Shown: one piece after another, positions 254-20,445 of the stretch
Position numbering within the stretch: position 1 is the first letter of the stretch
Layout: each line of letters begins with the position of its first letter
Origin: an uncultured Candidatus Saccharibacteria bacterium
GTDB lineage: Bacteria > Patescibacteriota > Saccharimonadia > CAILAD01 > JADZBC01
Length of the DNA: 64,000 nt
NCBI GenBank assembly: GCA_964413715.1
Contig: CAYPSN010000001.1
Location: 135,573 to 199,572 of the forward strand
Direction of reading: 5' to 3'
Program-made: the position numbers and the translations under genes
Notes under the pieces: model-generated
What the model saw: only the letters and a program-made list of their open reading frames with translations
Databases searched by the model: none
What the model was told of the DNA's origin: nothing

Positions 254-323
254 AGTATAGCTTGATTGGCCAGATTAGCAACCATAACAGATAATTGACA
301 AAATATAAGGCTTATGGTATTAT
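254..323. promoter_or_regulatory. divergent sigma70-like promoters (minus-strand TTGCTA/TATACT for ORF 1..218; plus-strand TTGACA 295..300 - 17 bp - TATTAT 318..323 for ORF 389..718)
   Basis: hexamers read directly from sequence with canonical spacing. Confidence 0.55.
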
Positions 324-388
324 GTCTAGGTTCAATGTCCACCGATTCTCGTGTGGGCACGAGCCCGCACCTACCCGGGGGAGGCCCC

Positions 389-718
389 ATGTACGAAAAA
401 CTGCTCGCTTCCTGGATCGTGCTTTGCGCGATACTCGGAGGTATCACCTGGAACTTTTACACGAAGTTCCAAGAAGCGAACCGTCTCTACGGGGAGCAAT
501 TCGACGCCACATCTCTTGAGCAGGTCTCTCATGCGATGGACAGAACCATGTTGGCATGTCTGTTGTTCAGCGGGGTTCTCGCTGTCGGAGCGTGCGCTTT
601 CATCGCCCATTACATCGGTTCGGCAAGTGAAGAAGGTTCGGACAGCGCGCAAGATGACGAACCTGACCCAGACACCCCCATGGATGCACCATGGGGCCAT
701 GAGTCGCGAGCGGCCTGA
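389..718 (+). CDS. GC-rich small membrane protein (2 predicted TM helices), ORFan
   Basis: ATG 389 with GGGGGAGG RBS 4 nt upstream; high GC vs flanks; hydrophobic segments; acidic C-terminus; followed by hairpin with TTCG tetraloop. Confidence 0.6.
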   Translation: MYEKLLASWIVLCAILGGITWNFYTKFQEANRLYGEQFDATSLEQVSHAMDRTMLACLLFSGVLAVGACAFIAHYIGSASEEGSDSAQDDEPDPDTPMDAPWGHESRAA

Positions 719-723
719 GGTGC

Positions 724-780
724 GGGCGGGGTGGAGTCTTCGGACTTCACCCCGCCAAACCCGTAATTATCTTTTGACGC
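724..780 (+). terminator. hairpin GGCGGGGTGGAGTC-TTCG-GACTTCACCCCGCC followed by AT-rich tract
   Basis: inverted repeat seen in sequence; T-tract not immediately adjacent so efficiency uncertain. Confidence 0.45.
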
Positions 781-876
781 CACCGTATTGCAGAGTGGTG
801 TTTTTGTTTACCAGTCATCAACAATTGACAGCTCTAAGCATAAGTAGTATGATAAGCGCAACTAAGTAAAACAAAA

Positions 877-1578
877 ATGCCTACTAAAAAATCAATTAAA
901 CCAAAGGGTCGTAAGCGCAAGCGCCAAACCTTCGACAAGCGTCTTGTACTGGCGGCTCTTATTTTAATCGGCCTGCTTGGCTTAGTCGTAGCAGGTCTAG
1001 CACCAGCCAAGACTGCTAAAAGTACCGGCTCACAGACAAAGACAGAACAGCAATCTACTGCATCTTCTACCAAATCCAAACAACCCAAAGCCGCAACGCC
1101 GACTAATAGCTCCGATACACCCAGCAGACCAAGCTCATCATCAAGCTCCCAGAACAAGCAGTCATCAAATAGCGGATCAACTCAGACCAACAACACAGCT
1201 CCCGTCAGCCAGCAGGGCGTTGCAGCTCCTGTATTCACTCCTACAGCTTCGGTTTCAAAAATCTTTGAAGAGATTACTGCCTGTGTACGCGAACGCTACA
1301 TCTTTAGTGGTCAAATTACAGCAAATATGGCCGGCACAGTTAACTGGAACTGGCTTCGTTGGGATGGCGGCACAAGTGGAGTCAGCGGCACGGTCACATT
1401 CGACAGTAATGGCAATACAAATGATGCCATGCCCTCATATGACTTCTGGATCCACCCAAATTATGATGTAAGTGGCTGGGTTGCGCTTCAGCTAACCTGG
1501 TCTGGTGGCAATTACACCACGCCTCACAGTAACTTTACTTATGTCGATGCCGATGTAAACCCAGGCGGCTGCCCTTAG
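877..1578 (+). CDS. membrane-anchored Ser/Thr/Gln-rich secreted protein
   Basis: basic N-terminus then TM helix (LVLAALILIGLLGLVVAGL), long S/T/Q low-complexity linker, C-terminal globular part; backbone-like GC. Confidence 0.6.
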   Translation: MPTKKSIKPKGRKRKRQTFDKRLVLAALILIGLLGLVVAGLAPAKTAKSTGSQTKTEQQSTASSTKSKQPKAATPTNSSDTPSRPSSSSSSQNKQSSNSGSTQTNNTAPVSQQGVAAPVFTPTASVSKIFEEITACVRERYIFSGQITANMAGTVNWNWLRWDGGTSGVSGTVTFDSNGNTNDAMPSYDFWIHPNYDVSGWVALQLTWSGGNYTTPHSNFTYVDADVNPGGCP

Positions 1579-1662
1579 ACTTTAGCAGTTTTGATACTAG
1601 TACGACGCTTTACGCCGGCGCAATTATTTACAAGAATTCACAACTTTCGTTATACTAAACAC

Positions 1663-2475
1663 ATGCATAAGCGTTATGGTTTTAGCGGGATAGAAGTAAT
1701 TTTGGTTCTAGCAATCATTGCTGCAGTTGGGGGTGTAGCTTGGTTTGGTTTGCGCGGCAATAACGCAAAAGATTCTAGTACTATAGCGAACGCTAAAGCC
1801 GTCACTTGGAGCTTTAACGGCACCGCTTGGGAAGCATCGGGCAAGCCACCGGCGTGTTCAAACCCAATACGCTTTAGCCAAGCGCCATCCGACTTATCAA
1901 AAGCAACTGCAGTGTTGTACCCAGGTCAAACCCGCGGCGGAAATTACAAACCACATGGTGGACTGCGCTACCCTGACGGGCAGAATAACGTCACAGTTAA
2001 AGCCATTTATGACGGTCGAGTTACAGAAGGCGCGCGCTATATCGAAGCAGGCGAAGTCCAGTATTTATTTACCATAGTAAACGATTGCGGCATTGCATAT
2101 CGTTTTGATCACTTACAGACGTTGAGTCCTAAGTTTCAAGCTATGGCTGATAAGTTGCCTGCCGCTCAGCCAAACGAGTCACGCACCACACGTTTTGACG
2201 ATCCTCTTGAAGTTAAGGCAGGGGAAATAGTCGCAACAGCAGTAGGGTTTCCTAAAATGCGCAACGCATCCTATGATTTAGGGGTATATGATCTGCGTAG
2301 CACCAACCAGGCCGCTCAAAGCGCTGAGTATCGCGCTAAACACCAACCCTGGCTGAATCAGGCTGCATACGCAGTGTGCTGGATCGACATGTTTTCAGCC
2401 AGTGACAACGCTATACTTGCGTCCTTACCCGGTGGAGACATGGTGAGCGGCAAACAAAGTGACTACTGCAAGTAA
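1663..2475 (+). CDS. type IV pilin-like protein (prepilin-type N-terminal cleavage/methylation motif)
   Basis: MHKRYG|FSGIEVILVLAIIAAVGG: G-F-x-x-E class III signal with Glu at +5 and hydrophobic helix; TATACT -10 at 1651..1656 only 6 nt before ATG (leaderless). Confidence 0.7.
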   Translation: MHKRYGFSGIEVILVLAIIAAVGGVAWFGLRGNNAKDSSTIANAKAVTWSFNGTAWEASGKPPACSNPIRFSQAPSDLSKATAVLYPGQTRGGNYKPHGGLRYPDGQNNVTVKAIYDGRVTEGARYIEAGEVQYLFTIVNDCGIAYRFDHLQTLSPKFQAMADKLPAAQPNESRTTRFDDPLEVKAGEIVATAVGFPKMRNASYDLGVYDLRSTNQAAQSAEYRAKHQPWLNQAAYAVCWIDMFSASDNAILASLPGGDMVSGKQSDYCK

Positions 2476-2780
2476 TGGCTAAGCAAGATCAGCGTCCAGG
2501 AATTCTCGGTGGTATTGTTTGGCTCTTTATTGCTAGCTCGGTAGTGACCCTATTATTACGTTTTGGCTATGACGCGCTCGGCAAGCAGCCACAGGGGAGT
2601 ATTACGGCACTTTTGTATGATTGGAGCAATACACTTTTGCTGCCAATTAGCTGGCTTGATAGCTATTTAGAGCTCCCCAAAACGTTTGCCAATGTTAGCC
2701 TAACTATCCCGCTCGCGATAGGACTCTATGTGCTTGTGGGCTGGCTTGTGATGGCAGTTATGGCTCGCAATCGAGGCTGA
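2475..2780 (+). CDS. small integral membrane protein (3 TM)
   Basis: ATG overlaps the stop of the pilin gene (TAATGG); hydrophobic throughout. Confidence 0.5.
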   Translation: MAKQDQRPGILGGIVWLFIASSVVTLLLRFGYDALGKQPQGSITALLYDWSNTLLLPISWLDSYLELPKTFANVSLTIPLAIGLYVLVGWLVMAVMARNRG

Positions 2781-2786
2781 GTCTGC

Positions 2787-2814
2787 TTGACAGCATACTT
2801 ATGAGGCGTAATAT
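2787..2814 (+). promoter_or_regulatory. sigma70-like promoter TTGACA-16-TAATAT
   Basis: read directly; sits at the low-GC to high-GC transition. Confidence 0.5.
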
Positions 2815-2859
2815 TAGGTGTACCTACCTGAAGAAGGTTGGTTCATCGGAGGTATCTCC

Positions 2860-3237
2860 TTGGTCGCACTCATGACTCGACCCGAGGCGCAGACCGTCGC
2901 GCCGAGCCGTCCCGACTACACACGCGCGGAGACGATCAACCTGATCAAGCGCGACGGCAGGTGCGGCACGATCCGTGCTCGCCTGCTGCTGTTCTTCGCC
3001 GAAGATCGCACCAAGCGTGGCTGTCACGGTCGCATGACCATGCTGCAAATGCTGCTGATCCATCCGGTGCTCGAGCGCATCATCCCAGATGGAGCGCAGG
3101 CCAAGCCAGGCACAGCACACGAGGCTCTCAACCAGCTCGATCCGCTGGGGCGTCCGTTCGTGCATGGCAAGGATCAGTTCCTGGGCGAGTGGTTCTGCCA
3201 CTGGAGCCTCGGCGTCCGGTTCGAGCCGCAGCGCTAG
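2860..3237 (+). CDS. GC-rich hypothetical protein (ORFan), about 125 aa
   Basis: plus-strand frame has GC3 near 90% versus about 60% for the overlapping minus ORF; GGAGGT 6 nt before in-frame TTG 2860; promoter upstream and terminator downstream in the same orientation; start uncertain (alternative ATG 2872). Confidence 0.5.
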   Translation: MVALMTRPEAQTVAPSRPDYTRAETINLIKRDGRCGTIRARLLLFFAEDRTKRGCHGRMTMLQMLLIHPVLERIIPDGAQAKPGTAHEALNQLDPLGRPFVHGKDQFLGEWFCHWSLGVRFEPQR

Positions 3238-3260
3238 TACGCGGTCAAGCAACCTCCGAA

Positions 3261-3303
3261 GGCCCGCATTGCAATAACGCAACGCGGGCCTTCTGCTTAT
3301 TTG
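3261..3303 (+). terminator. rho-independent terminator GGCCCGC-loop-GCGGGCC followed by TTCTGCTTATTT
   Basis: perfect 7-bp GC stem plus U-tract. Confidence 0.7.
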
Positions 3304-3335
3304 GTGCTATAATGGTCCAAACGGAGGGCACAATA

Positions 3336-3818
3336 ATGTTTGAGTGGTTTAAGGAATGGCGACGCAGTAGATTTCATCTCAAAACTCGACGCTTGTATGG
3401 TGGCCATCGTCACACTGCTGCGATGCTAGGCGTAGCCCAGGAACACCAGAAAGCTACCCAAGAGCTTCACGAGCACATCCATGCAGGGCAGGAAGCCAGA
3501 ATGGCTTCTATTGACACGTCGTTTAAAGACCCTCGCAATCAAGATCTCGCACGTCAGGCAGAAGTTGAATCAAAAGCTAAGCTCGAGCCGCTCATGGACC
3601 AAGACACTCAGGCTGCCGAGCAGTTGACGGCGGACAGGCAAAAAGATTATGACAAAGAGCTCAAAAAAGCCACCAAACACTACGCTCGACATCAGGATAA
3701 ATATTATGATGCAGCCGTCGAGGATATGCGCGAAGCAGGAATGGAGTTAAAGACAAATTCCCCTGAGCCCACCAAGGAATCAAAGCCGCCAAGAGACCCA
3801 GGCATTAAATTGGGCTAG
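3336..3818 (+). CDS. hypothetical charged/coiled-coil protein
   Basis: ATG 3336 with GGAGGG 7 nt upstream; extended -10 (TGcTATAAT at 3305..3313); low-GC codon usage, unlike the upstream GC-rich ORF in the same long track ORF. Confidence 0.6.
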   Translation: MFEWFKEWRRSRFHLKTRRLYGGHRHTAAMLGVAQEHQKATQELHEHIHAGQEARMASIDTSFKDPRNQDLARQAEVESKAKLEPLMDQDTQAAEQLTADRQKDYDKELKKATKHYARHQDKYYDAAVEDMREAGMELKTNSPEPTKESKPPRDPGIKLG

Positions 3819-3825
3819 AACAGAA

Positions 3826-3856
3826 GCCCCCGACCTAAGCCAGGGGCTTCTGTCAG
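3826..3856. terminator. bidirectional hairpin GAAGCCCCC...GGGGCTTC between convergent gene ends
   Basis: inverted repeat seen between stop at 3818 (+) and stop at 3853 (-). Confidence 0.5.
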
Positions 3857-4419
3857 GGGATGTTGCGAGTGTCTATGCTGCGTGAGTACGCTTCGAATAT
3901 CTCGTTTGCCTCCTTTCGAACCAAGCGCTCGGTATCACGCAACCGACGCTTGCTTACGACAGTGTGAACAATGTCGATCAAGATGCAGACTAGGGCAGCT
4001 ACAAAAATGGCGACCGTAACGACGACGTTCTCGCTCCTCGCCGATACTCTCAGCCAGCCTACCGCTACGCAGACCAGCCAAGACGTCCAGCAGGTGATCT
4101 TCACCCACAAAATTCGCTTTTCAGAACGGACGTACTGAGCAAGCAAGCGTCGTTGTTTCTGCTCCAGGCTGCCTAATCTGCTTTGCGCCTCTAGCACTGC
4201 CGTGCGTTGCTGCTGAACGTGCCTAACTCTAGCAGCAATTAAGGCATCGTCCTTGCGTGGAGCTTCTTCCAGCAGGTAGGTATCGAGATCACTCAAGATA
4301 CTGTCTGCCAGATTGCGCGCATTTCTGGTATTGTCGACTTCTTCGGCAAGCTGAAACTCCAGATCGATGTGCTGCCGAACACGACGAACACTTGGAAGCC
4401 AGCCCAAAATTCGCTTCAT
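3853..4419 (-). CDS. hypothetical protein with C-terminal TM segments
   Basis: ATG 4419 with GGGGGCAGC upstream; about 52% GC. Confidence 0.55.
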   Translation of the reverse strand: MKRILGWLPSVRRVRQHIDLEFQLAEEVDNTRNARNLADSILSDLDTYLLEEAPRKDDALIAARVRHVQQQRTAVLEAQSRLGSLEQKQRRLLAQYVRSEKRILWVKITCWTSWLVCVAVGWLRVSARSENVVVTVAIFVAALVCILIDIVHTVVSKRRLRDTERLVRKEANEIFEAYSRSIDTRNIP

Positions 4420-4487
4420 GCTGCCCCCAGGGCACTCGTAGATACGAAGTGAGCAAACTATATACTATTAATGCCAAAAATACAATA

Positions 4488-4982
4488 CTAAGCGCGACGG
4501 CGGGGTATAAATCGAGGTGTATTTAACTTATAGCGCGCGTAGCGTGAGCCGAACAGGGCTTCGAGCATGGCTTCTTCGCGCTGAGATTTTATCCATAGCA
4601 CCACAACAAGGCTGGCAAAGATCAACGCTCGGGCAATGCTTACTCGTATCAGTAATGTGCCAAGTGCCCATAGGATTATTCCGCTATATACTGGGTGGCG
4701 GACTCGCTTGTATAAGCCGCTGGTCGTGAGCTGGGCATTCTTTACGGGTTCGGCGAATATCGAAAGGGAATACTTGCGCAGTTGCCAGAGCGCTCGGGCA
4801 GCAATGTAGACACCACCAAGTCGCATGAGGTTGGCAAAGAGTATATGTAGCCCGCCCTCGCGTCGGCCAGGGAAGTACAAAACTGCAATCATCAAGCCAA
4901 GCTGAAGTGCAACCAAGATAATGCTGATAGTTTTTGGCTTTGGACTTACTGCATGCCGCCCGCTGCGTCTGCGCCGTTTCAT
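4488..4982 (-). CDS. isoprenylcysteine carboxyl methyltransferase (ICMT/PEMT) family membrane methyltransferase
   Basis: multi-TM protein with the family-typical RHPxY...ILWALG segment (VRHPVYSGIILWALG) and C-terminal acidic motif; -10 TATACT (4994..4989) only 6 nt before ATG (leaderless). Confidence 0.75.
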   Translation of the reverse strand: MKRRRRSGRHAVSPKPKTISIILVALQLGLMIAVLYFPGRREGGLHILFANLMRLGGVYIAARALWQLRKYSLSIFAEPVKNAQLTTSGLYKRVRHPVYSGIILWALGTLLIRVSIARALIFASLVVVLWIKSQREEAMLEALFGSRYARYKLNTPRFIPRRRA

Positions 4983-5043
4983 AGCCCAAGTATACCGCTT
5001 GTGCTTAATAAAATCGAGTAAATTATTTCAGGTACGAAAAGAG

Positions 5044-5087
5044 CCCCGGAGGGGAGTACAGGACTCTTCCGGGGCTCACGTGCGTAG
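5044..5087 (-). terminator. terminator of the AGAGCCCCG repeat family (GAGCCCCGG...CCGGGGCTC + TCTTTTCGTA on minus strand)
   Basis: hairpin plus U-tract read on the minus strand. Confidence 0.7.
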
Positions 5088-5099
5088 CCCTTGGTGGTC

Positions 5100-5480
5100 T
5101 CAGCCGAAGTACCAGCTGAAGCCGGCACCCATGATCATGCCTGCCATCAGACAGAGCATGGCTGGCAGGGCGATGGCAGCACGGATCTCGTTCTGCACGA
5201 GGTACGCCGATGGCTGCACCCAGTAGTTGGCGTACTTGGCATTCACCTTGCGGCGAGCGCGCAACCAGCCGAACAGGGCACCGATGTAGCCGCCGATCAA
5301 GGCACCACCGACCGCCCAGAGGAACGGAGTGGTGTTCTCCTGCCCGCCCGACGAACGGGTGGTGTAGAGGAACTTCAGCACCAGCCCCGGATCCATGAAG
5401 CGGATGTAGGTCATCACCGCGATGAGGCCGATGATCAGGCCGATGCCGACCTTGTACAGCACATCCTTCACGGCCGTCAC
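5100..5480 (-). CDS. GC-rich integral membrane protein (3 TM), ORFan
   Basis: GTG start overlaps the stop of the upstream small ORF (GTGA); high GC; hydrophobic. Confidence 0.55.
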   Translation of the reverse strand: MTAVKDVLYKVGIGLIIGLIAVMTYIRFMDPGLVLKFLYTTRSSGGQENTTPFLWAVGGALIGGYIGALFGWLRARRKVNAKYANYWVQPSAYLVQNEIRAAIALPAMLCLMAGMIMGAGFSWYFG

Positions 5481-5587
5481 TTGAGACCACTCAGCGCCCA
5501 GTACAGGACAGCCGAGGTTCCCACGGTGAACAGCGCCGTGAGGACGTTCTTCTGCAGCTCGGTGAGCTGCTTCTTTGCCTTGGCCAC
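5477..5587 (-). CDS. small membrane protein (36 aa) MAKAKKQLTELQKNVLTALFTVGTSAVLYWALSGLK
   Basis: AAGGAGG RBS 4 nt before GTG start; translationally coupled to downstream gene; not in the ORF track (under 60 aa). Confidence 0.45.
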   Translation of the reverse strand: MAKAKKQLTELQKNVLTALFTVGTSAVLYWALSGLK

Positions 5588-5624
5588 AGGGGCCTCCTTG
5601 ATGTAGGGAACTACGAACGTATGC

Positions 5625-5653
5625 ATATTACCATATTACTTATGCTTTGTCAA
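5625..5653 (-). promoter_or_regulatory. sigma70-like promoter TTGACA-17-TAATAT (minus strand) for the 5587..5100 operon
   Basis: read directly; shares the motif TTGACAAA...TATGGTAWTATG with the promoter at 295..323. Confidence 0.5.
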
Positions 5654-5871
5654 TAATATCCTCTCTGCTGCGGCGCAGAAAACATTGCGTTTTTAGACTT
5701 TCGTTCTTTTGAACTCATCAGCATAGAAACACATCTATGGAGTCTCCCGAGGGAGCCCACAATGAGCGCGCTTTTTGTTGCGCGCCCACCATGAGCGTCT
5801 CCTCAGGTGCCTGATTGTACAGGACTTTTTGGACGGATTAGCCGCCCTCTTCGCCTCTTGGGCTTGGGATG

Positions 5872-7605
5872 TCAGCGCTTGCCGAGGATGTGCAGCTCGA
5901 TCGTCGGCCTGATCTTGTTGTCGATCAGAGTGCGGTAGGTGTCCAGCTCGGCGTCCGTTGGGAAGTGCGCCAGCAGGGTGAGCAGCTCGATGGCCAACCA
6001 CTCCTGCAGGTGCATGATCCAGCGGTCGTTTCGAGCCGTGTGCCTGCCGTTGGTCTCGTCGAGCTTGACCCAGTCGGGGTGCCTGATGTTGAGCACCAGG
6101 GTTCCCGTGCTGGACTCGAACTCCCACAGGTGGGCGTTGCCAGCAAGCTCGTCGTAGCGGAACGACAGACCCTGGGAGCTTGCGCTCACAGAGCCCTTCT
6201 TGGTTCCACCCGACCCACCGGGATGCGGCTTGGTTGGGCGTTCGCCCTCACCGCTACCGCCGCCGGGCTTGCGCCCGCCGCTCGTGCCGTTGCCGCCACG
6301 AGTACCTGGCTCGTCATCGCCCGAGGTCTCACCCTCGGCCTTCTCGCTACCTCCGGGGTCCGGAGATGGTGCTCCGAAGCGCTTCCAGTCGGCGTCGGGG
6401 AATTGCTCGCTCAGTCGCTTGAGGCTCTCGTTGGCGAGGTCCTCGTAGCGGGAGCGATCCTGATCTTCCCGTTCCTCCTCGTAGAGCGCCTGCCCGACTT
6501 CCTCGTACCAGGTGCTCAGCACCAAGTACAAGCCGTGCAGGGGATCGTTGTACTTGAAGCTCTCCCGATCATCACGCAGGGTGATGTTCTCACATCGGAT
6601 GTAGCCCTCGAAGTACCCCGAGCAGAGCACGCTGGCAGCGTCGCTGACGAATTCCCAGAACTTGCCGGAGCGAGCCTGGTTGGCAAACGCCGTCATCGTC
6701 ACACCGAAGTCACCAACCTGGCGCATGACCTGCACCTTGCCCTCCCGCCTGCCGCGCTGTTGCGGCGCACGAAAGAGGGTGATGGTGACCTTGCCGGCGA
6801 TCGGGTCGGTGTACTCGACAACGTCGAGCGGATCTCCCTGGAACGACTGAGGTTCGATGTCACAAACCTCCTTGCTGCCGTTCGAGATCAGGGCGATGCG
6901 CACCTCGACACCCTTGCGCTGCATGGCGATGCCGAAGTTCTGACGGATCTCCGACACGAGCACTTCCAGGTCGATACGACTGACATGCCGGTCCTTGGTC
7001 AGGCCGTTCATCTTGATCATGGTCTGGTAGCGAACGCCGAAACGACCGCTCAGTTCACTGCGGAACTGCTGACCAGGATCCGGAAGCTTGTGGATCGACT
7101 TCCACGGGATGTGGAGCGTCTCGTGCTGAACTCGCACCTCTTCTTCTCGGAAGGTCCACACGTGGCCCTTCTTCGCACCACGTGCGATCGAAGCGAAGGT
7201 GTAGGTCTTGCACTTGTCGATTGGAGCCACGAGCCCCAAGCCGAACTCGCCCAGCTTGTCGGCATCCTTGATGGAGTTACCGATGTTGAGCAGAGCCTCG
7301 TTGAAGCCTGCCATCGTGGTGCCCTTGCCGTTGTCGAGCACGATCACCACTCGCTTGTCGAGATCGATACCGACGAAGATCAGGCTGGCGCCTTGATCGA
7401 TGCCGTTCTGAACCATCTCCTTGAGCGCTGCTCGCAGGGTGGGGTACCGATCTGCGTAGTACATGATGGCATTGCCTTGGTGGACACCGGCCGGGGAAGA
7501 CCCCGAACCGGCCTGGACAGCCTCAGCGGGTTCGCCGCTGGGGTCTTCTGTGGGTTCCTCAGCGGGATCGCCGCTGGGGTCATCTGTGGACTCAGCCACG
7601 GTCAC
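5872..7605 (-). CDS. GHKL-superfamily ATPase (HATPase_c_3; MORC/MutL-like ATP-binding fold) with acidic repeat N-terminus, Gly-rich linker and C-terminal domain
   Basis: N-box EMVQNGIDQ (ExxxNxxD), G1 box VLDNGKGTTMAGF (DxGxG), G2 box GEFGLGL present in order; 4-bp start/stop overlap with upstream gene; high GC. Confidence 0.75.
   Translation of the reverse strand: MTVAESTDDPSGDPAEEPTEDPSGEPAEAVQAGSGSSPAGVHQGNAIMYYADRYPTLRAALKEMVQNGIDQGASLIFVGIDLDKRVVIVLDNGKGTTMAGFNEALLNIGNSIKDADKLGEFGLGLVAPIDKCKTYTFASIARGAKKGHVWTFREEEVRVQHETLHIPWKSIHKLPDPGQQFRSELSGRFGVRYQTMIKMNGLTKDRHVSRIDLEVLVSEIRQNFGIAMQRKGVEVRIALISNGSKEVCDIEPQSFQGDPLDVVEYTDPIAGKVTITLFRAPQQRGRREGKVQVMRQVGDFGVTMTAFANQARSGKFWEFVSDAASVLCSGYFEGYIRCENITLRDDRESFKYNDPLHGLYLVLSTWYEEVGQALYEEEREDQDRSRYEDLANESLKRLSEQFPDADWKRFGAPSPDPGGSEKAEGETSGDDEPGTRGGNGTSGGRKPGGGSGEGERPTKPHPGGSGGTKKGSVSASSQGLSFRYDELAGNAHLWEFESSTGTLVLNIRHPDWVKLDETNGRHTARNDRWIMHLQEWLAIELLTLLAHFPTDAELDTYRTLIDNKIRPTIELHILGKR
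7523..7594 (-). repeat. tandem 36-bp direct repeat inside the 5' end of the GHKL ATPase gene (encodes acidic DPSGDPAEEPTE/DPSGEPAEAVQ repeats)
   Basis: cagcgggttcgccgctggggtcttctgtgggttcct / cagcgggatcgccgctggggtcatctgtggactcag. Confidence 0.8.
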
Positions 7606-8318
7606 CTTCCTTCTCGGTGTTGTGCACGAGCACGCTCGGAGTTGAGCGCGTTCAGGACTTGGGAAAGGTTGAACAAGCTGTTGGCCAGCTCGAACAACTC
7701 TTCGCCCGCCAGCTCACGCAGGCGGGAGCGCTGGGCTGGAGTCCAAGATTCCAGTGCCAGCAAAGCAAGGGGGGATACCCCTTTCACCATCGCTGCCAGT
7801 ACGGGCACCAGCACGTCGAATGCTGGCGCTTCCGCCAACACCTCTGGGGTTGCCTCTGGAAGCGGGGGAAGAGCACTTGGACTGAACGCACGCAGCTTGT
7901 CCTGCAGTCCGCTCTTGGCGTACTGCAAGCTTTCTCCGTACATCTCCTCCAGGCCCTCGACGCCCACAGCAGGCTGCATGGGCTCACGCCCACGCAGGAT
8001 CTGCAGCACGTCTTGGTTGTTCTTGACCCCGCTCAGCTGCTTGGCCTCATCGATCGTGATGACCGAGTAGGCGTACAGCTCGGCGAGGTACTGGTTGAAC
8101 TGCGGAATCCGAAGCTCGGGGATCTCATACCCGGCAGCCAGCACGAAGTGCCAGAGCCGAATCTCGAGGGTTCCCTGAGCCGGATTGCTGTTGGCTGTCC
8201 AGCGTTCCACGGAAGACCGCGCAGCCCCCACGAAATCACAGACGGGCTGTGTTCCATGATGGGTTACGAAGTCCGCCAGGGACGGCTGCAGCCACCGAAA
8301 TGGCTTGTGAACCTGCAT
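7602..8318 (-). CDS. hypothetical protein (238 aa), upstream partner of the GHKL ATPase
   Basis: ATG 8318 with AAGGAGCC RBS; longer track ORF start at 8378 lies inside promoter/operator sequence, so shorter start preferred; high GC. Confidence 0.6.
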   Translation of the reverse strand: MQVHKPFRWLQPSLADFVTHHGTQPVCDFVGAARSSVERWTANSNPAQGTLEIRLWHFVLAAGYEIPELRIPQFNQYLAELYAYSVITIDEAKQLSGVKNNQDVLQILRGREPMQPAVGVEGLEEMYGESLQYAKSGLQDKLRAFSPSALPPLPEATPEVLAEAPAFDVLVPVLAAMVKGVSPLALLALESWTPAQRSRLRELAGEELFELANSLFNLSQVLNALNSERARAQHREGR

Positions 8319-12661: not shown

Positions 12662-12687
12662 TATATTACCTTGATATCTTAAGCGCC

Positions 12688-12733: not shown

Positions 12734-12749
12734 TTAGCCCTGCGGCGTC

Positions 12750-13109
12750 CTACACGCCAGGGTCAAGGCCGTGAGCGTGGAGCATGTCCGCACTCTCGCG
12801 CAGGAAGCTTTCGCCATCGGGTGAAAGCTGGTACAGGCGTGTGGTCCAGTCTCCCTGAACCAACCGAGGTGACGGCCACACGTAGCCTTCCTCGGCCTGA
12901 CGATTCAAGAGGTTCTGAAGGAAGTACACATCGCACTTGAGGTCGTCTGCCAGGTGTCGAAGCTCCTTGGGGCGACCGACGCGCTTGAGGTGGCAGAGCA
13001 CCACCCAGTAGTTGTTGGCTTCGAACTTCTTGTTAGCACGGATGCGCCACGCCCACACTCCCATGAGGAAGAAGACGAGGCACATCGTTATCTGAATGAG
13101 GAGTATCAC
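12750..13109 (-). CDS. GC-rich small membrane protein, ORFan
   Basis: GTG start at 13109 with GGAGGT upstream. Confidence 0.5.
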   Translation of the reverse strand: MILLIQITMCLVFFLMGVWAWRIRANKKFEANNYWVVLCHLKRVGRPKELRHLADDLKCDVYFLQNLLNRQAEEGYVWPSPRLVQGDWTTRLYQLSPDGESFLRESADMLHAHGLDPGV

Positions 13110-13157
13110 ATGACCTCCGTGGCCACTCGATGTTTGGAAGGGTCTATACGAAGTCGA

Positions 13158-13185
13158 ATTATATACTAAATATAAGATTAGTCAA
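13158..13185 (-). promoter_or_regulatory. sigma70-like promoter TTGACT-16-TATAAT (minus strand)
   Basis: read directly. Confidence 0.55.
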
Positions 13186-13217
13186 TGATTTCTATTGAAG
13201 CAGAGCTACGCTTATGC

Positions 13218-13246
13218 TTGTAAAAGAAGGTTGATGATTAGATAAT
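13218..13246 (+). promoter_or_regulatory. sigma70-like promoter TTGTAA-17-GATAAT
   Basis: read directly. Confidence 0.45.
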
Positions 13247-13285: not shown

Positions 13286-13468
13286 GTGGCAGTATTGAAG
13301 GAATTTTCGCTTCTGCGAACCGTGTGCGATGCATGTGGCGGCAACTACATGGCCATCGAGTCCACCGACGATCCCACCAAGGTGCAGCTGCTCTGCAGCT
13401 GCCGAGCAGTCCGCCTGATGTCCAGACAGAGCCCGGTGATCCGGCAAGCTCTGGAGGACTCGGAATGA
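13286..13468 (+). CDS. small Cys-rich (zinc-ribbon-like CxxC...CxC) protein, 60 aa
   Basis: GTG start 5 nt after AGGAGG. Confidence 0.5.
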   Translation: MAVLKEFSLLRTVCDACGGNYMAIESTDDPTKVQLLCSCRAVRLMSRQSPVIRQALEDSE

Positions 13469-13866
13469 ACCCCGTGGTTCTGCGCGTACGCTATCGGCCC
13501 ATCGGCATCGCCGAGGCCAAGGCACGTCAGCTGAGCAACGACAATGAAGTCGTACGTAGCGTCATGGCGGCGGTGGCGTTTCGTAGTTTCGGTGACAAGG
13601 TCGATGGGAAGCTCAAGGACCACGTGCGCCTGGAGTTCACTGCGGCCAGCCCGCTGGACTGCAACTGCCCAGCGATGTCGTTCGAGCTGGAGTGGACTGA
13701 TCCGGACATGACCCAGCGCAAGCTCGATGCGCGTTGCGATTCGCTCGCAGCCGCCCTGGTAGACCTCATGTCTGGACCGATCGACATGCTGGTAGTAGTG
13801 CGGGTAGGCAGCATGACGTCGCAGCTGGAGTCTTTCAAGCGACAGGCTACATCAGCCGCGCAATAA
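13465..13866 (+). CDS. GC-rich hypothetical protein (133 aa), ATGA-coupled to the upstream small protein
   Basis: ATG 13465 with GGAGGA 6 nt upstream, overlapping stop of the previous ORF; the track ORF 13324..13866 is in the same frame but starts earlier. Confidence 0.5.
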   Translation: MNPVVLRVRYRPIGIAEAKARQLSNDNEVVRSVMAAVAFRSFGDKVDGKLKDHVRLEFTAASPLDCNCPAMSFELEWTDPDMTQRKLDARCDSLAAALVDLMSGPIDMLVVVRVGSMTSQLESFKRQATSAAQ

Positions 13867-15859: not shown

Positions 15860-15864
15860 AACAT

Positions 15865-15892
15865 TGATTTTATCTCATAATTAAGGCATAAT
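15865..15892 (+). promoter_or_regulatory. sigma70-like promoter TTGATT-16/17-CATAAT
   Basis: read directly. Confidence 0.45.
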
Positions 15893-16401: not shown

Positions 16402-16450
16402 GCCACCCCAAGAATGATGAACCGTCACTCCTTGGGGTGGCGTTTCATTT
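16402..16450 (+). terminator. terminator GCCACCCCAAG...CTTGGGGTGGC + GTTTCATTTG
   Basis: 11-bp perfect stem. Confidence 0.7.
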
Positions 16451-16453
16451 GAC

Positions 16454-16482
16454 TTGAAAAATAACAGCCTACCTGGTATGAT
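16454..16482 (+). promoter_or_regulatory. sigma70-like promoter TTGAAA-17-TATGAT
   Basis: read directly. Confidence 0.5.
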
Positions 16483-16915: not shown

Positions 16916-17027
16916 CACCGAACCACTCCTGCGGGAGGCATTACGCCACTCGAAGGGGTGGTGTTTTGTTTTACTTGCCTTGCATTTTGGCTTTCAAATT
17001 TCTACAATAGAGCCACACATTAACATA

Positions 17028-17189
17028 ACCTAGTATCGAGAGTGCAGTGAGAGATCTAGCTCTATGACCTGCCGGCAACCACTTTGTAAAAGAACGGTGC
17101 CCCTTCTAGCCCTGTGCGGGAAAGATAAGTGATAGACTTAACTCCTTTTTCCTGCCGGTGGCGGGATAGATACGAAAGGAGTTTTTTTT
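17028..17189 (+). promoter_or_regulatory. SAM-I (S-box) riboswitch with expression-platform terminator (CTCCTTTTTCC...GGAAAGGAG + T8) in the metK leader
   Basis: conserved S-box blocks recognisable: GAGAGTGCAGTGAGAGA, TATGACCTGCCGGCAACC, GGTGCC, GAAAGATAAG; directly upstream of metK. Confidence 0.65.
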
Positions 17190-18161
17190 ATGGCCAAACT
17201 AACTAACCTGCGAACCGCCGAAAGTGTCAGCCCCAAGCACCCCGACAAATTGTGCGATCAAGTCAGCGATGCAATATTGGATGCATACTTAGCCAAAGAC
17301 CCTACGTCCCGAGTAGCAATTGAAGCACTTGGTGGGCACGGTCAGCTGGTGGTGATGGGTGAGGTTACCAGCACGGCGACGATAGACATTGCCCCAATTG
17401 TGCAGCGCATTGTGGGCGACATTGCACTCAGTACCATCATCGTGGAGCAAAGCCCCGAGATTGCCCAAGGAGTCGATACTGGCGGAGCTGGCGACCAGGG
17501 CATAATGATTGGCTACGCTTGCAGCGAAACACCCGAAGCCTTACCGCTCGAAGTAGTGTTAAGCCGTCAGCTCAATCAGTATTTGTTTGAGCGCTGGCCG
17601 TTCGATGGCAAAACACAAATAACGTTGCGAGGAGACCAGATTGTTGCCGTGGTGGCGAGTTTTCAAAACGCAGCTACCGACGAATTGAAACAGGCAATTG
17701 CCGAGTGGCTGCAAAGCAAGCCCACGAGCAAACAACTTGCCATTCACGCCAATCCGGCGGGCGAATGGCGCCAGGGTGGATTTAAGGCTGATACGGGCCT
17801 GACTGGTCGCAAGTTGGTGGTGGATAATTACGGCCCGCGCATTCCAATTGGCGGTGGTTGCTTTAGCGGCAAAGACGCCAGTAAAGTCGATAGATCGGCC
17901 GCTTACATGGCACGTAAGATTGCGCTGGATTATCTTCGTAAGCGTGAAGCAAGTGAAGTATTTACTAGGCTTGCGTATGCAATAGGCTACGATCAGCCAC
18001 TTGAGGCTAGTATCATAATTGACGGCAAACAAGAAGCCGTGGTTGGCTATGACTTGTCGCCACGGGGCATCATTAAGCAGCTTGACTTAACCAAGCCACA
18101 GTTTGAAGCCACGGCGCGCTATGGGCATTTTGGCCATGGTGAATTTAGTTGGGAGAAGTAA
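17190..18161 (+). CDS. metK: S-adenosylmethionine synthetase (short form, 323 aa)
   Basis: SESVSPKHPDKLCDQVSDAILDAYL and GAGDQGIMIGYA signatures. Confidence 0.85.
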   Translation: MAKLTNLRTAESVSPKHPDKLCDQVSDAILDAYLAKDPTSRVAIEALGGHGQLVVMGEVTSTATIDIAPIVQRIVGDIALSTIIVEQSPEIAQGVDTGGAGDQGIMIGYACSETPEALPLEVVLSRQLNQYLFERWPFDGKTQITLRGDQIVAVVASFQNAATDELKQAIAEWLQSKPTSKQLAIHANPAGEWRQGGFKADTGLTGRKLVVDNYGPRIPIGGGCFSGKDASKVDRSAAYMARKIALDYLRKREASEVFTRLAYAIGYDQPLEASIIIDGKQEAVVGYDLSPRGIIKQLDLTKPQFEATARYGHFGHGEFSWEK

Positions 18162-18198
18162 CGAAAACGAAAAACCGCCCACCAGGGCGGAATTTCGC
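18162..18198. terminator. bidirectional terminator CCGCCCACCAGGGCGG flanked by A5/T-rich tracts; copy 1 of a ~50-bp repeat
   Basis: perfect 6-bp stem, loop ACCA. Confidence 0.7.
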
Positions 18199-18215
18199 CC
18201 CGACGAGCGGGAGAG
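18165..18215. repeat. repeat copy 1 (GAAAAACCGCCCACCAGGGCGGAATTTCGCCCCGACGAGCGG), about 80% identical to copy at 19658..19712
   Basis: aligned by eye. Confidence 0.6.
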
Positions 18216-18218: not shown

Positions 18219-18635
18219 CTAGTCGACCGGAACTGCTTGAGGCGTCGCACTGCCTGCGAGCACGACGCTAACGTCTTGCTCGAGATCTCGGGACATTGCC
18301 ACGTCCAGCGGCAACTCGCCATTCCGAGGTGAGGCCAGACGAGAGCACACCCTGTCGTACAAGCTGGCCGCAGCCGGCCCATGCGGCGCCAGCAAGATCC
18401 GATTGTTGTCCGCCATCAAGGAGACGTGCACTCCCTGGAGTCCTCGACAGAGATGGTTCACCGCCGAATATCCGACAGGCGTCAGTCGGCGACCAACAGC
18501 CAGGTGATAGGCGGCAGATCCGAAGTCAGCTCGAGAAGTTGGATCGACGTAGAGAGGTTCTTCGCTGGTCAGAACCAGCTCACCACCCCCTTCTGAGCGG
18601 TCGTAGGCAGTAACCCGAACTTGCATTTCTCTCAC
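18219..18635 (-). CDS. GC-rich hypothetical protein (138 aa)
   Basis: ATG with GAGAAAGTGAGAGAA upstream; likely co-transcribed with 18657..18902. Confidence 0.5.
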   Translation of the reverse strand: MREMQVRVTAYDRSEGGGELVLTSEEPLYVDPTSRADFGSAAYHLAVGRRLTPVGYSAVNHLCRGLQGVHVSLMADNNRILLAPHGPAAASLYDRVCSRLASPRNGELPLDVAMSRDLEQDVSVVLAGSATPQAVPVD

Positions 18636-18656
18636 TTTCTCGTTGTGGGGTGGGGA

Positions 18657-18902
18657 TTACTCGTTGGTTGGGCCGAAGTAGCCCTCATGCTCAAGCAGCC
18701 CTTCGAACCGGGCCACTCCATCAAGTGCGTTCTTGCGCATCCTTGCGCTGCGGTAATGCAGCTCACGCTTGATCTTGGGGTCCAACCTACGCATGTAGTA
18801 CGGATCCGAGAGCACACGTGCGATTACCTCGTCGCACCACTGGGTACTCATCTTGCTCGGGTATACACCTTTCGGTACATAGCGAGCGGGCCCTGTAGCC
18901 AA
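18657..18902 (-). CDS. GC-rich hypothetical protein (81 aa), TTG start
   Basis: GAGGAAGAG upstream of TTG; start uncertain. Confidence 0.45.
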   Translation of the reverse strand: MATGPARYVPKGVYPSKMSTQWCDEVIARVLSDPYYMRRLDPKIKRELHYRSARMRKNALDGVARFEGLLEHEGYFGPTNE

Positions 18903-18961
18903 ATTCTCTTCCTCTAGTTCGATGATGAGCGGATTACTACATTACCATGAAATAAGTATTC

Positions 18962-19016
18962 TTACAATAACGAAAGCCGCCCCACGGGGGAGAGGCGACT
19001 CTCTGCCGTGGGGCGG
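18962..19016 (-). terminator. terminator CCGCCCCACGG...CCGTGGGGCGG + CTTTCGTTATTG (minus strand)
   Basis: 11-bp stem. Confidence 0.65.
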
Positions 19017-19032
19017 ATGGGTTGTACTTGGG

Positions 19033-19584
19033 TCAGTCGAGGGTTGCGTCGGTAGTGACAACCTCGTTGGCCTTGGCCACGAAGCGTCCGAGGACGGCCA
19101 GCCCCTTGGGGCCGACGAAGGATGCCCGACGTGCATGGCGAAGAACGCTGCGAACCTCATCCTGGAACTCGGAGAAGTAAAAGACCTTGGCCAAGGTAGC
19201 CAGGTCAACCTCCCTTGCGCCTGCCGTTCGTGCAGGCATGAGCGGGCTGTCGCTGCAGCTGAGAGGATCCTCTTGCACGATGCTGACAGACATCCAGATC
19301 GAAGTGATCACCTTGACCAGGTATCCGGTCTCGCGCGGCGAAAGATCGAGGTTGCGACAGATCCGCTTGCGGACCACTTCCGTGATCATCACGCCGGACA
19401 AGTCGATCACCCCTTCAGGCGGACCATCAGAGCCCTTCTTCTGCTTCTTGCCGGACTTCTTCTTCGAAGCCCCCTTCTTCGGCGGCGCCTTGAGCTCGGC
19501 CTTCTTGGAGAGCTTGGGCTTCTTGCCCTTGCCCTTCTTGTTCTTCTTGGCGCCCTTCTTGGGCTCCTTCTTCTTGCTTGCCAT
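19033..19584 (-). CDS. protein with about 50-aa lysine-rich (AKKA/KKG) N-terminal tail resembling histone H1 / actinobacterial HupB C-tails, plus unknown C-terminal domain
   Basis: MASKKKEPKKGAKKNKKGKGKKPKLSKKAELKAPPKKGASKKKSGKKQKKG; high GC. Confidence 0.55.
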   Translation of the reverse strand: MASKKKEPKKGAKKNKKGKGKKPKLSKKAELKAPPKKGASKKKSGKKQKKGSDGPPEGVIDLSGVMITEVVRKRICRNLDLSPRETGYLVKVITSIWMSVSIVQEDPLSCSDSPLMPARTAGAREVDLATLAKVFYFSEFQDEVRSVLRHARRASFVGPKGLAVLGRFVAKANEVVTTDATLD

Positions 19585-19623
19585 GCCGCGCTTCTTTCTG
19601 TAGTTGGACGGCTGAACTTCGCA

Positions 19624-19652
19624 ATAATACTATATTTTGCGTAATAAATCAA
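19624..19652 (-). promoter_or_regulatory. sigma70-like promoter TTGATT-17-TATTAT(TGCG) (minus strand)
   Basis: read directly. Confidence 0.55.
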
Positions 19653-19657
19653 TACAA

Positions 19658-19712
19658 CCGAAGAACCGCCCACCAGGGACGGAATCTCCGTCCGCAGTGA
19701 GCGGATTGTTTT
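19658..19712. repeat. repeat copy 2 (GAAGAACCGCCCACCAGGGACGGAATCTCCGTCCGCAGTGAGCGG)
   Basis: aligned by eye to 18165..18215; contains hairpin GGACGGAGATTCCGTCC. Confidence 0.6.
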
Positions 19713-19729
19713 GGCAGGGTAGAGCTCTG

Positions 19730-20374
19730 CTAGCGATACCGATAGCGCCTCAGCCGTCGCCAGTAGGGCCAACGCCGCTTGAACTTGCAGCGCAAGCACT
19801 TGCAGACGTTCCAGTGCGTCCGACTGAACCGCTGGCAACGCCAACAGTGGCAGTGGCTGTGTTGCCGCCTTGGAGCGTCGCGCCAGTTCTTCCAGCGCGA
19901 AAACAGTGAGTTGTCATACCAGTACAGCCGCAGCTTGAAGCACTTATACAAGCACCAGCCCACTAGCTGCTCGAGACACAAACCAAGCAGCAAGGATCCG
20001 AAAGCGATCGCTGGCCAGGAATTAGCCAACGTAAAGCTGAACTTTTCACCTCCGCCCAAGTCGAGCATCCACAGAGTGTAGAGCCCACCGAGCGAGATGA
20101 GCAGACCAACTAGCCCCAACCAGCGCAGCGAACTACGCAAGCGTACTTCGCCAGCCTGATCATCGGCCTGGTCGTAGAACGGCGTGCGTTCATCCTTGCT
20201 TGAACCGAAGTGATCAGTATGAGTCTCTTCAACGATCAGGCCCCGCAGCCTATCCGCCTGCGGTGCTGGCTGGGCCATGAAGGCTTCGAGCGTGACCTCA
20301 AGCACAGGGTCCTCGGTGCCAAAAACCTCCTCGACAGCTGCGAAGAGGTCGTCTGGTACTTCATCGTCAGCCAC
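19730..20374 (-). CDS. membrane protein with acidic N-terminus, 2 TM helices and Cys/Arg/Trp-rich C-terminal tail (CxCxxC x2); 3' part uncertain
   Basis: GTG start with AAGGAGGT RBS; promoter TTGATT-17-TATAAA at 20417..20445 (minus); the C-terminal 75 aa also reads open in another frame. Confidence 0.4.
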   Translation of the reverse strand: MADDEVPDDLFAAVEEVFGTEDPVLEVTLEAFMAQPAPQADRLRGLIVEETHTDHFGSSKDERTPFYDQADDQAGEVRLRSSLRWLGLVGLLISLGGLYTLWMLDLGGGEKFSFTLANSWPAIAFGSLLLGLCLEQLVGWCLYKCFKLRLYWYDNSLFSRWKNWRDAPRRQHSHCHCWRCQRFSRTHWNVCKCLRCKFKRRWPYWRRLRRYRYR

Positions 20375-20445
20375 AGCCGACCTCCTTGATTCGATGTATA
20401 GGAACGAATAGATAGATTTATACGCTGATGAGCAGCATAAATCAA

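Follow-up and report, generated by a model that had tools for sequence, protein, structure and literature searches.

The first 20 kb of the stretch analysed here, 64,000 nucleotides of an uncultured Candidatus Saccharibacteria bacterium (contig CAYPSN010000001.1, positions 135,573 to 199,572 of the forward strand; hereafter the window), contain a dense series of short GC-rich genes preceded by sequences that are very close to the sigma-70 promoter consensus. The locus raises the question of why so many near-consensus promoters stand together, and why they resemble each other. The original prediction was that a promoter module had been copied together with a family of cassettes, or that the DNA was of recent engineered or mobilised origin. 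Here, we find that the underlying observation is real and statistically robust; the strict motif had been over-counted. The sites are probably ordinary housekeeping promoters, placed on a variable island of self-contained GC-rich cassettes. Judged from the sequences, their likeness beyond the hexamers would be due to an extended consensus and to AT-richness, that is, to functional convergence, and one copied module is not supported.

The units were delimited by their GC profile and by codon-position analysis. Those inside positions 254 to 20,445 are labelled C1 to C16, and C17 to C19 are located outside this range (Table 1). There are at least 16 short transcription units in 1-20.5 kb, and further ones are scattered at 22.5, 24.9 and 58.7 kb. 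Each unit is composed of an AT-rich promoter, a leader of 30-90 nt that ends in a GGAGG-type ribosome-binding site, one or two open reading frames (ORFs) and a GC-rich hairpin. The claim that at least 16 cassettes have ATTGACA/T promoters holds as a count of transcription units, but there are only 10 strict sites, one of which is on a gene that is not GC-rich (877-1578). The other 6-7 cassette units have weaker sites that match the consensus at 8-10 of 12 positions (TTGTAA, TTGATT, TTGAAA). In total, 17 sites in 254-20445 score 9-12/12 and one, that of C14, scores 8/12; every site faces an ORF and is located 14-92 nt upstream of its start codon.

A consensus scan of 1-20 kb found 38 sites, compared with 11.2 +/- 3.2 in shuffled sequences. 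This set includes five 11/12 sites and two perfect, divergent TTGACA-17-TATAAT sites, which are located where they had been reported, at 9804-9832 on the minus strand and at 9917-9945 on the plus strand. As intergenic DNA is AT-rich, a stricter null was made by shuffling inside each of 23 intergenic segments (3.6 kb in total). Under this null, about 1 site of at least 10/12 is expected and 14 were observed; for at least 11/12, 7 were observed and fewer than 0.1 expected. The motif ATTGACW-N16/17-TANNAT occurs 11 times in the window, with 0.08 expected, and 10 of these occurrences fall inside 294-13186. Backbone segments, in comparison, are at chance for weak matches (18 vs 18.2 in 20-40 kb and 25 vs 25.1 in 40-60 kb). 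The few strong sites in 20-60 kb are located at real operon starts such as that of topA, which, like a sigma-like backbone gene of the window, has an 11/12 site, and many backbone units combine a good extended -10 with a poor -35. By every sequence-level criterion, the island sites are above-chance, correctly placed putative promoters of the sigma-70/sigma-A type.

The hexamers are also conserved. Two sister species, B (L097, L098) and C (L095), were found through homologues of ThyX; in both, metK is 81% identical to that of the window and many cassette orthologues are present. When six orthologous promoters were compared with those of species B, 68 of 72 hexamer positions were identical, whereas only 64 of 101 spacer positions were (Fisher p = 1e-6). 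The leaders of the same six regions have 181 identities in 226 positions, and the 30 nt upstream of the promoters 97 in 180. The hexamers have been kept far better than the spacers, which argues that they are under selection. The promoter of C6 illustrates this: the protein has only 22% identity to that of species B and the spacer 6 of 17 positions, yet ATTGACATA and the -10 were kept.

The view that natural promoters rarely match the consensus so closely fails in this phylum. In 337 kb from 18 other loci of Saccharibacteria and candidate-phyla (CPR) bacteria, 31 sites of at least 11/12 were found for 6 expected, and 8 of them are perfect. The strings TTGACAaaa and TRTGn-TATAAT recur in unrelated Saccharibacteria, and 'tttatgcTATAAT' is present in both L085 and L103. 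In 18.8 kb of the latter, a Saccharibacterium of 59% GC, AT-rich gaps between GC-rich genes contain four sites of this strength, two of them perfect and two 11/12. Closeness to the consensus is thus a property of the phylum; a literature search found no promoter compilation for a Patescibacterium.

To compare the promoters with each other, 24 of them (16 of cassettes and 8 of the backbone) were aligned on their hexamers, and the 51 non-hexamer positions were evaluated by a test in which each column is permuted among the promoters, so that position-specific preferences are kept. Such preferences are evident. There is an A at -36 in 16 of the 24 promoters, and the first three spacer bases are A-rich. 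The five bases before the -10 are most often T (15), A (16), T (15), G (11) and G (12), which we take to be the TRTG '-16' motif, known as the extended -10 of Gram-positive sigma-A promoters and compiled as such for Bacillus subtilis. This motif accounts for the recurring strings 'TATGGTAWTATG' and 'ttatgcTA'. The strings that had been reported as common to several promoters are, for the most part, where they were said to be: TATTATTGCG at 11526-11535 and, reverse-complemented, at 19620-19629; atttttatgcta in both 11503-11531 and 58628-58656; TTGACAAA...TATGGTAWTATG in 295-323 and 5625-5653; and aTAGAAT in 8411-8438 and 12633-12661. A further string, TATATAAT, is found at 9938 and 13158, but the third reported position, 9804, reads GATATAAT. 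A clear relationship of the modules outside the hexamers, as originally concluded, does not follow from these strings, as the permutation test was negative. The best pairs, C1/C3 and C4/C5, have 26 identities in 51 non-hexamer positions (p about 0.18). A repeat finder run on the window listed no family of promoters; what it returned were families of terminators and two short promoter overlaps. A candidate common 10-mer, AGCATAAGTA, which could have been a common operator, occurs at chance level.

Several observations weigh against ordinary promoters on a phylum-derived island; some concern the promoters and are given here, while others concern the ORFs and are given further below. Promoter function itself is predicted from conservation and position only. 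The mean best upstream match is 9.7/12 for cassettes and 8.7/12 for the backbone of the same window (Mann-Whitney p = 0.012), which agrees with the claim that cassette promoters are the closer to consensus. The longest in-register run that two promoters have in common is 9-10 nt, with p values of 0.06-0.17 that are borderline at best, and pairwise identity is over-dispersed (variance p <= 0.001). The A at -36 is found in 12 of 13 island TTGACW promoters (at 294, 824, 5654, 8439, 9833, 9916, 10427, 11502, 12662, 13186, 23027 and 58627), compared with 0/3 in the backbone, 11/27 in other Saccharibacteria and 4/4 in L103. It could be a cassette-specific trait that indicates common ancestry or a common donor, possibly as an extended -35 or as a marker of the donor lineage. 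Together with the closer match to consensus, it could mean that the cassettes brought their promoters along from a donor lineage that has this trait, or that accessory genes were selected for strong, regulator-independent expression. It could also be the trace of an ancestral segment of about 40 bp that was duplicated or carried before each cassette, which would turn the likeness into homology; the 10-18 nt strings of the pairs C1/C3, C8/C19, C8/C15 and B877/C3 speak for this too, as do the over-dispersion and the terminator repeat families described below, which show that this genome does copy short regulatory sequences. The over-dispersion would, however, be expected from the different AT content of the promoters. 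Moreover, the match between B877 and C3 does not keep the register of the hexamers, promoters that look alike have unrelated leaders and upstream flanks, and identical strings occur in unrelated Saccharibacteria. When the C4 pair is compared with its homologue in another Saccharibacterium, L101, the ORFs have 75% nucleotide identity while the promoter regions are unalignable, even though both promoters read TTGACA-16/17-TA..AT with a TRTG-like motif. A copied module is therefore improbable in our view. Synthetic DNA, in which consensus promoters and strong terminators would have been put around codon-optimised ORFs, might be suspected from the two perfect promoters placed back to back, from the regular order of promoter, ribosome-binding site, ORF and terminator, and from a codon usage unlike that of the backbone. 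It can practically be dismissed: a megablast search of 1-20.5 kb against 72,556 plasmid and 50,697 phage records gave no match, the locus is present on contigs of at least eight independent metagenome assemblies (JGI, ENA, Logan) with natural strain polymorphism, both sister species have orthologous loci with kept hexamers and diverged spacers, and the surrounding chromosome is a normal one with core genes and a SAM riboswitch.

The cassettes themselves are set apart by their composition. Their ORFs have 60-66% GC, and the GC content of third codon positions (GC3) is 0.7-0.9 (about 0.8) compared with about 0.5 in the backbone, which has a GC content of about 48-50%; first positions (GC1) are shifted too. 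The GC1, GC2 and GC3 values of the cassettes match those of L103 and not those of their own backbone, and relative synonymous codon usage gives the same result, with r = 0.91 to L103 and r = 0.38 to the own backbone. GC content falls exactly at the ORF and terminator borders, as it does in the native high-GC Saccharibacteria L103 and L104, and no GC-rich flanks were carried over. The cassettes are oriented on both strands, each with its own promoter. Matches of the cassette proteins to Pfam, NCBIfam and PADLOC are nearly nil; the exceptions are the GHKL ATPase domain of C4b, the M50-like protease C7 and ThyX, and the PADLOC and NCBIfam scans gave only sub-threshold matches. Many of the proteins are predicted to be membrane proteins. 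When eight orphans were joined into one chimeric protein query, the search found no match, its word prefilter favouring long unrelated proteins. The uncharacterised family of C19 has about 485 clusters and no usable annotation, and profile searches with it against the PDB and Pfam returned only a marginal HbpS-like match.

The terminators consist of a GC-rich hairpin and a T-rich tail, often TTTCGT, and, unlike the promoters, some of them are true repeats. Five belong to family T1 (GAGCCCCG ... CGGGGCTCTTTTCGT) and are located behind C3b, C5, C9, C10 and the distant C19, at 5034-5077, 9194-9237, 12055-12098, 12689-12732 (minus strand) and 59289-59337 (plus strand), so that one copy is 46 kb from the rest. 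The copies have a common core of 13-15 nt; four contain the exact 13-mer, for which essentially no occurrence is expected, and one has diverged. The T1 hairpins can be described as bidirectional terminators that form a dispersed repeat family. The terminators of C14b and C16 both carry CCCTGGTGGGCGGTTYTTCG, and shorter common cores are found in the pairs C6/C7 and C12/C13.

The content of the island varies between strains and between species. The window matches an ENA metagenome scaffold at 100% identity and a 200 kb JGI contig at 99.95%, apart from one replaced segment in the latter. In this segment, window 390-1645, which comprises C1 and a Ser/Thr-rich gene of 233 amino acids (aa), is replaced by a single allele of 114 aa (L007 1209-1664). 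Conservation extends over the promoter, the leader of 65 nt and roughly the final 19 codons, the middle of the ORF is unrelated, and the C1 promoter is kept before the different allele in strains L007 and L008. The conserved C1 leader gave no significant structure when folded. C6, compared between species, likewise has conserved ends and a hypervariable middle. In species B, the C5-C6-C7-C10 block comes after ThyX, instead of being 15 kb away from it, and lacks C8 and C9. C18a is absent from both species B and C, relative to which it is an insertion between the ABC transporter and ThyX. The C6 terminator and the complete C7 unit, from promoter through ORF to terminator, fall in segment 10319-11363, which has 95% identity to species B, whereas its flanks have 75-84%; this difference indicates that the whole C7 transcription unit was recently exchanged between species. 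A metagenome scan with C7 found only one extra locus, of 2.2 kb. Mobilisation, as proposed originally, is therefore borne out in a looser sense, by foreign GC3, strain differences, rearrangement between species and the 95% identity of the C7 unit, but not in a phage context. The metK neighbourhoods of relatives (L015-L031, L085) have essentially no GC-rich blocks, and the island is thus specific to this clade.

Two of the cassettes could be traced, C4b and ThyX, and the relatives of both are found only in Saccharibacteria. For C4b, a set of 5.8 billion proteins contains only 18 homologues, and the sole named one is from Ca. Microsaccharimonas. The GC-rich ThyX of the window is of the Saccharimonadales type; it has no thymidylate kinase fusion, unlike most Saccharimonadales homologues. 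The C4 pair matches the GC content of the genome in L102 (57%) and L103 (59%), while it stands out in L101 (52%) as it does here, and it is located between groEL and pgi in both L101 and L103. For the remaining cassettes, we infer a donor in a higher-GC lineage of Saccharibacteria.

Divergence at fourfold degenerate sites complicates this history. With species B, identity at these sites is 0.70 for five cassettes, 0.92 for C7 and 0.21-0.50 for four of five backbone genes, saturation being at about 35%. The cassette proteins are no better conserved than those of the backbone, with 68-83% vs 79-94% identity. With species C, two of three cassettes (C12 and C14b) and all five backbone genes are synonymously saturated, and C15 (0.54) and ThyX (0.59) have not reached saturation; despite saturation elsewhere, GC3 is 0.64-0.87 in cassettes and 0.44-0.65 in the backbone. 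Taken together, the fourfold, protein and GC3 data, which come from small samples, suggest either a repeated import of alleles or a GC-maintaining force, combined with fast protein evolution.

The points against a phylum-derived island that concern the ORFs can now be given. A donor has been shown for two cassettes only, and the codon usage of the cassettes correlates with that of Frankia (r = 0.90) as well as with that of L103. As Frankia fits as well as a high-GC Saccharibacterium, codon usage was dropped as an identifier of the donor. Prephenate dehydrogenase, a backbone gene, also has low synonymous divergence, and the contrast between cassettes and backbone is not clean. Saturated sites with high GC3 do not fit a recent import that has not yet ameliorated, unless there is repeated re-import or a force that maintains GC. 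Alternatively, the ORFs might stem from the actinobacterial host, which has a high GC content, or from phages of that host, and have captured or evolved a promoter of the Saccharibacteria type after insertion. Saccharibacteria in culture are naturally competent epibionts of Actinobacteria, and promoter and terminator parts work across species (PMC10633639). The Frankia-like codon usage and the many orphans with unplaced relatives agree with such an origin, which we nevertheless regard as unlikely, given that the relatives of C4b and ThyX are confined to Saccharibacteria, that GC content drops exactly at the ORF and terminator borders with no GC-rich flanks, that tblastn of C4b and C19 against a host-labelled phage collection gave no match, and that a scan of IMG/VR viral contigs with C7 and C4b gave none either. 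It is also conceivable, if rather unlikely, that nothing is foreign and that GC is maintained in place, by GC-biased gene conversion or by selection on recombining, highly expressed accessory genes. The GC3 of orthologous cassettes exceeds that of the backbone in the window's species, A, and in species B and C even at synonymous saturation, the position of the C4 pair between groEL and pgi in L101 and L103 suggests long residence, and the cassettes show more recent recombination than the backbone. Conversely, GC1 is shifted as well, and the strongly expressed groESL of L101 is not GC-rich. A GC3 gap of 30 points is, moreover, much above the gaps that are usually ascribed to biased gene conversion in bacteria, which counts against maintenance in place. 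Finally, the array could derive from an integrated phage, plasmid or conjugative element, of which it would represent the early or 'moron' region. Autonomous promoter-ORF-terminator modules of deviant composition are what defines morons (PMC3594210), many of the proteins are small orphans, and a TrwB/TraG-like ATPase is encoded elsewhere in the window. We consider this very unlikely, because Pfam scans of the window ORFs and a tRNA scan of the window revealed neither an integrase or recombinase nor a capsid, a terminase or a tRNA attachment site, because the phage, plasmid and IMG/VR searches given above found no similarity, and because metK with its riboswitch, DUF2779, an ABC transporter and ThyX are interleaved with the cassettes in a synteny that is common to the sister species.

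Ordinary housekeeping promoters on a variable island are, accordingly, the account that we prefer, and the following mechanism is proposed. The housekeeping sigma-70/sigma-A holoenzyme would read the -35, the -16 TRTG and the -10 directly, no activators being needed, within an extended consensus A(-36)-TTGACA-aaa ... T-R-T-G-n-TATAAT that has a spacer of 17 +/- 1 nt. The promoters would be alike through converging on, or keeping, this one recognition consensus, and their density would come from a variable island of short, mutually insulated transcription units. The GC-rich ORFs would form a flexible gene pool, whose likeliest source is a lineage of 57-60% GC that natively has AT-rich promoters before GC-rich ORFs. 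Its units would be gained, lost, rearranged and swapped for divergent alleles, and in at least one case a whole promoter-ORF-terminator unit passed between species, with natural competence and recombination as the probable route.

A broader proposal is more tentative, and we hold it as a possibility to be entertained rather than expected. The cassettes may belong to a pool of self-expressing units that is exchanged within the phylum and has its reservoir in higher-GC lineages; continual re-import of alleles by competence would keep the foreign GC3 beyond the point of synonymous saturation, the proteins would evolve fast, the island would be a hotspot of host interaction or defence, and the ATTGACA-type promoter would act as a portable 'plug'. 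If so, a near-consensus promoter makes any imported cassette expressible without regulators. The promoters themselves matter little, as they are ordinary for the phylum, but they provide a working consensus for Saccharibacteria promoters, A-TTGACA-aaa-N-TRTGn-TATAAT, and short natural promoter and terminator parts that could aid new genetic systems for epibionts. The island is the more useful lead: it is a place to seek unknown factors by which ultrasmall bacteria deal with hosts or phages, and a test case for the persistence of foreign-looking GC in a reduced genome.

Table 1 Predicted promoters, ORFs and terminators of the cassettes in the window. Promoters are given as -35 hexamer, spacer length and -10 hexamer with their score out of 12; TM, transmembrane segment.
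Feature	Position	Strand	Further details
Promoter-like site TTGCTA-16-TATACT (9/12)	254-281	-	faces a 236-aa orphan gene that runs off the left window end
C1 promoter aTTGACA-17-(tatgg)TATTAT, 11/12	295-323	+	
C1 GC-rich ORF, 109 aa, predicted 2-TM orphan	389-718	+	hairpin terminator 722-756
Promoter aTTGACA-17-TATGAT, 11/12	825-853	+	low-GC gene 877-1578
Promoter TTTACA-18-TATACT, 10/12	1627-1656	+	pilin-like operon 1664-2780
C2 promoter TTGACA-16-TAATAT, 10/12	2787-2814	+	C2 ORF 2860-3237, terminator 3258-3302
C3 promoter aTTGACA-17-(tatgg)TAATAT, 10/12	5625-5653	-	
C3 ORFs	5477-5626 and 5100-5480	-	small membrane ORF (49 aa) and C3b, respectively
C3b terminator	5034-5077	-	repeat family T1
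C4 two-gene cassette	5872-8378	-	C4a 7602-8318/8378, C4b 5872-7605; GC3 0.70-0.80
C4b, GHKL-type ATPase (Pfam HATPase_c_3)	5872-7605	-	
C4 promoter aTTGACA-16-TAGAAT, 11/12	8411-8438	-	
C5 terminator, family T1	9194-9237	-	common with convergent gene 8664-9176
C5 GC-rich ORF, 165 aa, GC3 0.89	9259-9756	-	N-terminal TM, then long predicted helical region
C5 promoter, perfect TTGACA-17-TATAAT	9804-9832	-	hexamers 11/12 kept in species B
C6 promoter, perfect TTGACA-17-TATAAT	9917-9945	+	
C6 GC-rich orphan, 118 aa	9982-10338	+	terminator 10368-10393
C7 promoter aTTGACT-17-TATTAT, 10/12	10428-10456	+	
C7 GC-rich M50-like membrane metalloprotease, 248 aa	10518-11264	+	terminator 11318-11340
C8 promoter aTTGACT-17-(tatgc)TATTAT, 10/12	11503-11531	+	C8 ORF 11567-11965
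C9 terminator, family T1	12055-12098	-	
C9 GC-rich membrane orphan, 160 aa	12118-12600	-	
C9 promoter aTTGACA-17-TAGAAT, 11/12	12633-12661	-	
C10 terminator, family T1	12689-12732	-	
C10 GC-rich orphan, 119 aa	12750-13109	-	
C10 promoter aTTGACT-16-TATAAT, 11/12	13158-13185	-	
C11 promoter TTGTAA-17-GATAAT, 9/12	13218-13246	+	C11a 13286-13468, C11b 13465-13866
C12 promoter aTTGATT-17-CATAAT, 9/12	15864-15892	+	C12 ORF 15940-16389, terminator 16423-16442
C13 promoter TTGAAA-17-(ctgg)TATGAT, 10/12	16454-16482	+	C13 ORF 16553-16915, terminator 16943-16964
C14 terminator	18160-18210		common with convergent metK
C14 two-gene cassette	18219-18902	-	C14a 18657-18902, C14b 18219-18635
C14 weak promoter-like site aTTGTAA-17-(atgg)TAATGT, 8/12	18939-18967	-	
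C15 GC-rich ORF, 183 aa, Lys-rich N-terminus	19033-19584	-	terminator 18966-19016
C15 promoter aTTGATT-17-TATTAT, 9/12	19624-19652	-	hexamers identical in species B and C
C16 GC-rich membrane ORF, 214 aa, Cys/Arg-rich tail	19730-20374	-	terminator 19656-19704
C16 promoter TTGATT-17-TATAAA, 9/12	20417-20445	-	hexamers 12/12 kept in species B
C17, outside 254-20445	22483-23026	-	GC-rich ORF 22483-22983, promoter aTTGACA-17-TAATAT 22998-23026
C18a and GC-rich ThyX	24869-27131	+	C18a 24869-25348, ThyX 25494-27131
C19, isolated among housekeeping genes	58628-59337	+	promoter aTTGACT-17-(tatgc)TAATGT 58628-58656
C19 ORF	58680/58728-59267	+	T1-family terminator 59289-59337

The window is chromosomal DNA of Saccharibacteria (TM7, Patescibacteria). 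The closest relatives of its metK belong to Candidatus Saccharibacteria and Nanosyncoccus genomes, with 63-69% amino-acid identity. The backbone comprises pth, dprA, topA, der, ftsW, mraY, a penicillin-binding protein, mraW, ftsQ, scpB and recO, and it also encodes tRNA synthetases of the aspartyl/asparaginyl type and of class II; the tRNA scan of the window found no tRNA gene. The core genes that are interleaved with the cassettes are those of DUF2779, DUF1905, metK, the ABC transporter, chorismate mutase and prephenate dehydrogenase. A SAM-I riboswitch (Rfam RF00162, 52 bits) is located in the leader of metK, at 17030-17131 on the plus strand, and is kept in species B and C. To the left, small orphan transcription units go on for at least 2.6 kb beyond the window (L105 1-2614). 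A candidate structured non-coding RNA of about 360 nt is found at 20449-20849 on the minus strand. It has a putative promoter, TTGAAC-16-TAATAT, at 20849..20822, and a terminator at 20489..20449 that consists of a perfect hairpin and a U-tract. The z-score of its minimum free energy is -2.85; the region has no ORF with a coding signature, and no Rfam match was found even at E <= 1. It is kept in species B, but in species C the matching gap measures only about 100 nt.

Some cassettes have features of their own. C15 starts with a Lys-rich tract of about 55 residues that resembles histone H1 (KKKEPKKGAKKNKKGKGKK...), which suggests a nucleic-acid-binding protein; its promoter and the terminator upstream of it are nearly invariant in the three species. 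The 5' end of C4b contains a 33-nt tandem duplication (94% identical, window 7521-7589) that encodes a repeated acidic motif, DPSG(D/E)PAE. Downstream of C4b, about 170 nt of non-coding DNA (window 5699-5871) are conserved with the homologous L101 locus despite different flanking genes, and this stretch may represent a small RNA or a small ORF, or else belong to the mobile unit.

The island can be compared with several known systems. Like integron arrays, it has tandem units of mostly one ORF, an imperfect inverted repeat at the end of the unit and a content that varies between strains. Integron cassettes lack promoters, point one way and are read from one Pc promoter; the island, in contrast, has a promoter for each unit, mixed orientation, and 3' hairpins with U-tracts that resemble intrinsic terminators. 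No recombinase domain turned up in the scanned ORFs of the window and of the 2.6 kb to its left, and no IntI integrase or attI was found in the window; the array may extend further left. Identity with integron cassettes was rejected on account of the own promoters, the mixed strands, the terminator-like hairpins and the lack of an integrase in the DNA so covered. Phage morons are closer in organisation, being independent promoter-ORF-terminator units that are spread by horizontal transfer (PMC3594210). The cassettes have in common with them the self-contained unit, the deviant composition, the presence or absence between relatives, and mostly small proteins of unidentified role. They differ in that they are outside a phage or prophage, between core genes, in a long array of which several members have fixed positions in three species.

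The sites themselves are similar to sigma-A promoters in their TTGACA and TATAAT hexamers, a spacer of 16-18 nt that is mostly 17 nt, T-R-T-G-n before the -10, AT-rich upstream DNA, a distance of 15-95 nt to a start codon that is preceded by GGAGG, and the selective conservation of the hexamers. They are different in a mean consensus match that is unusually high for a natural set and in the nearly invariant A at -36 of the cassettes, and the start sites here are predicted ones. The RpoD regulon of phytoplasma offers a parallel in a genome-reduced bacterium, with promoters close to the canonical -35 and -10 (PMC4493692). Phytoplasmas are of another phylum, and here the strongest sites are on accessory orphans; what the two have in common is few sigma factors and regulators, and promoters that are nearly canonical.

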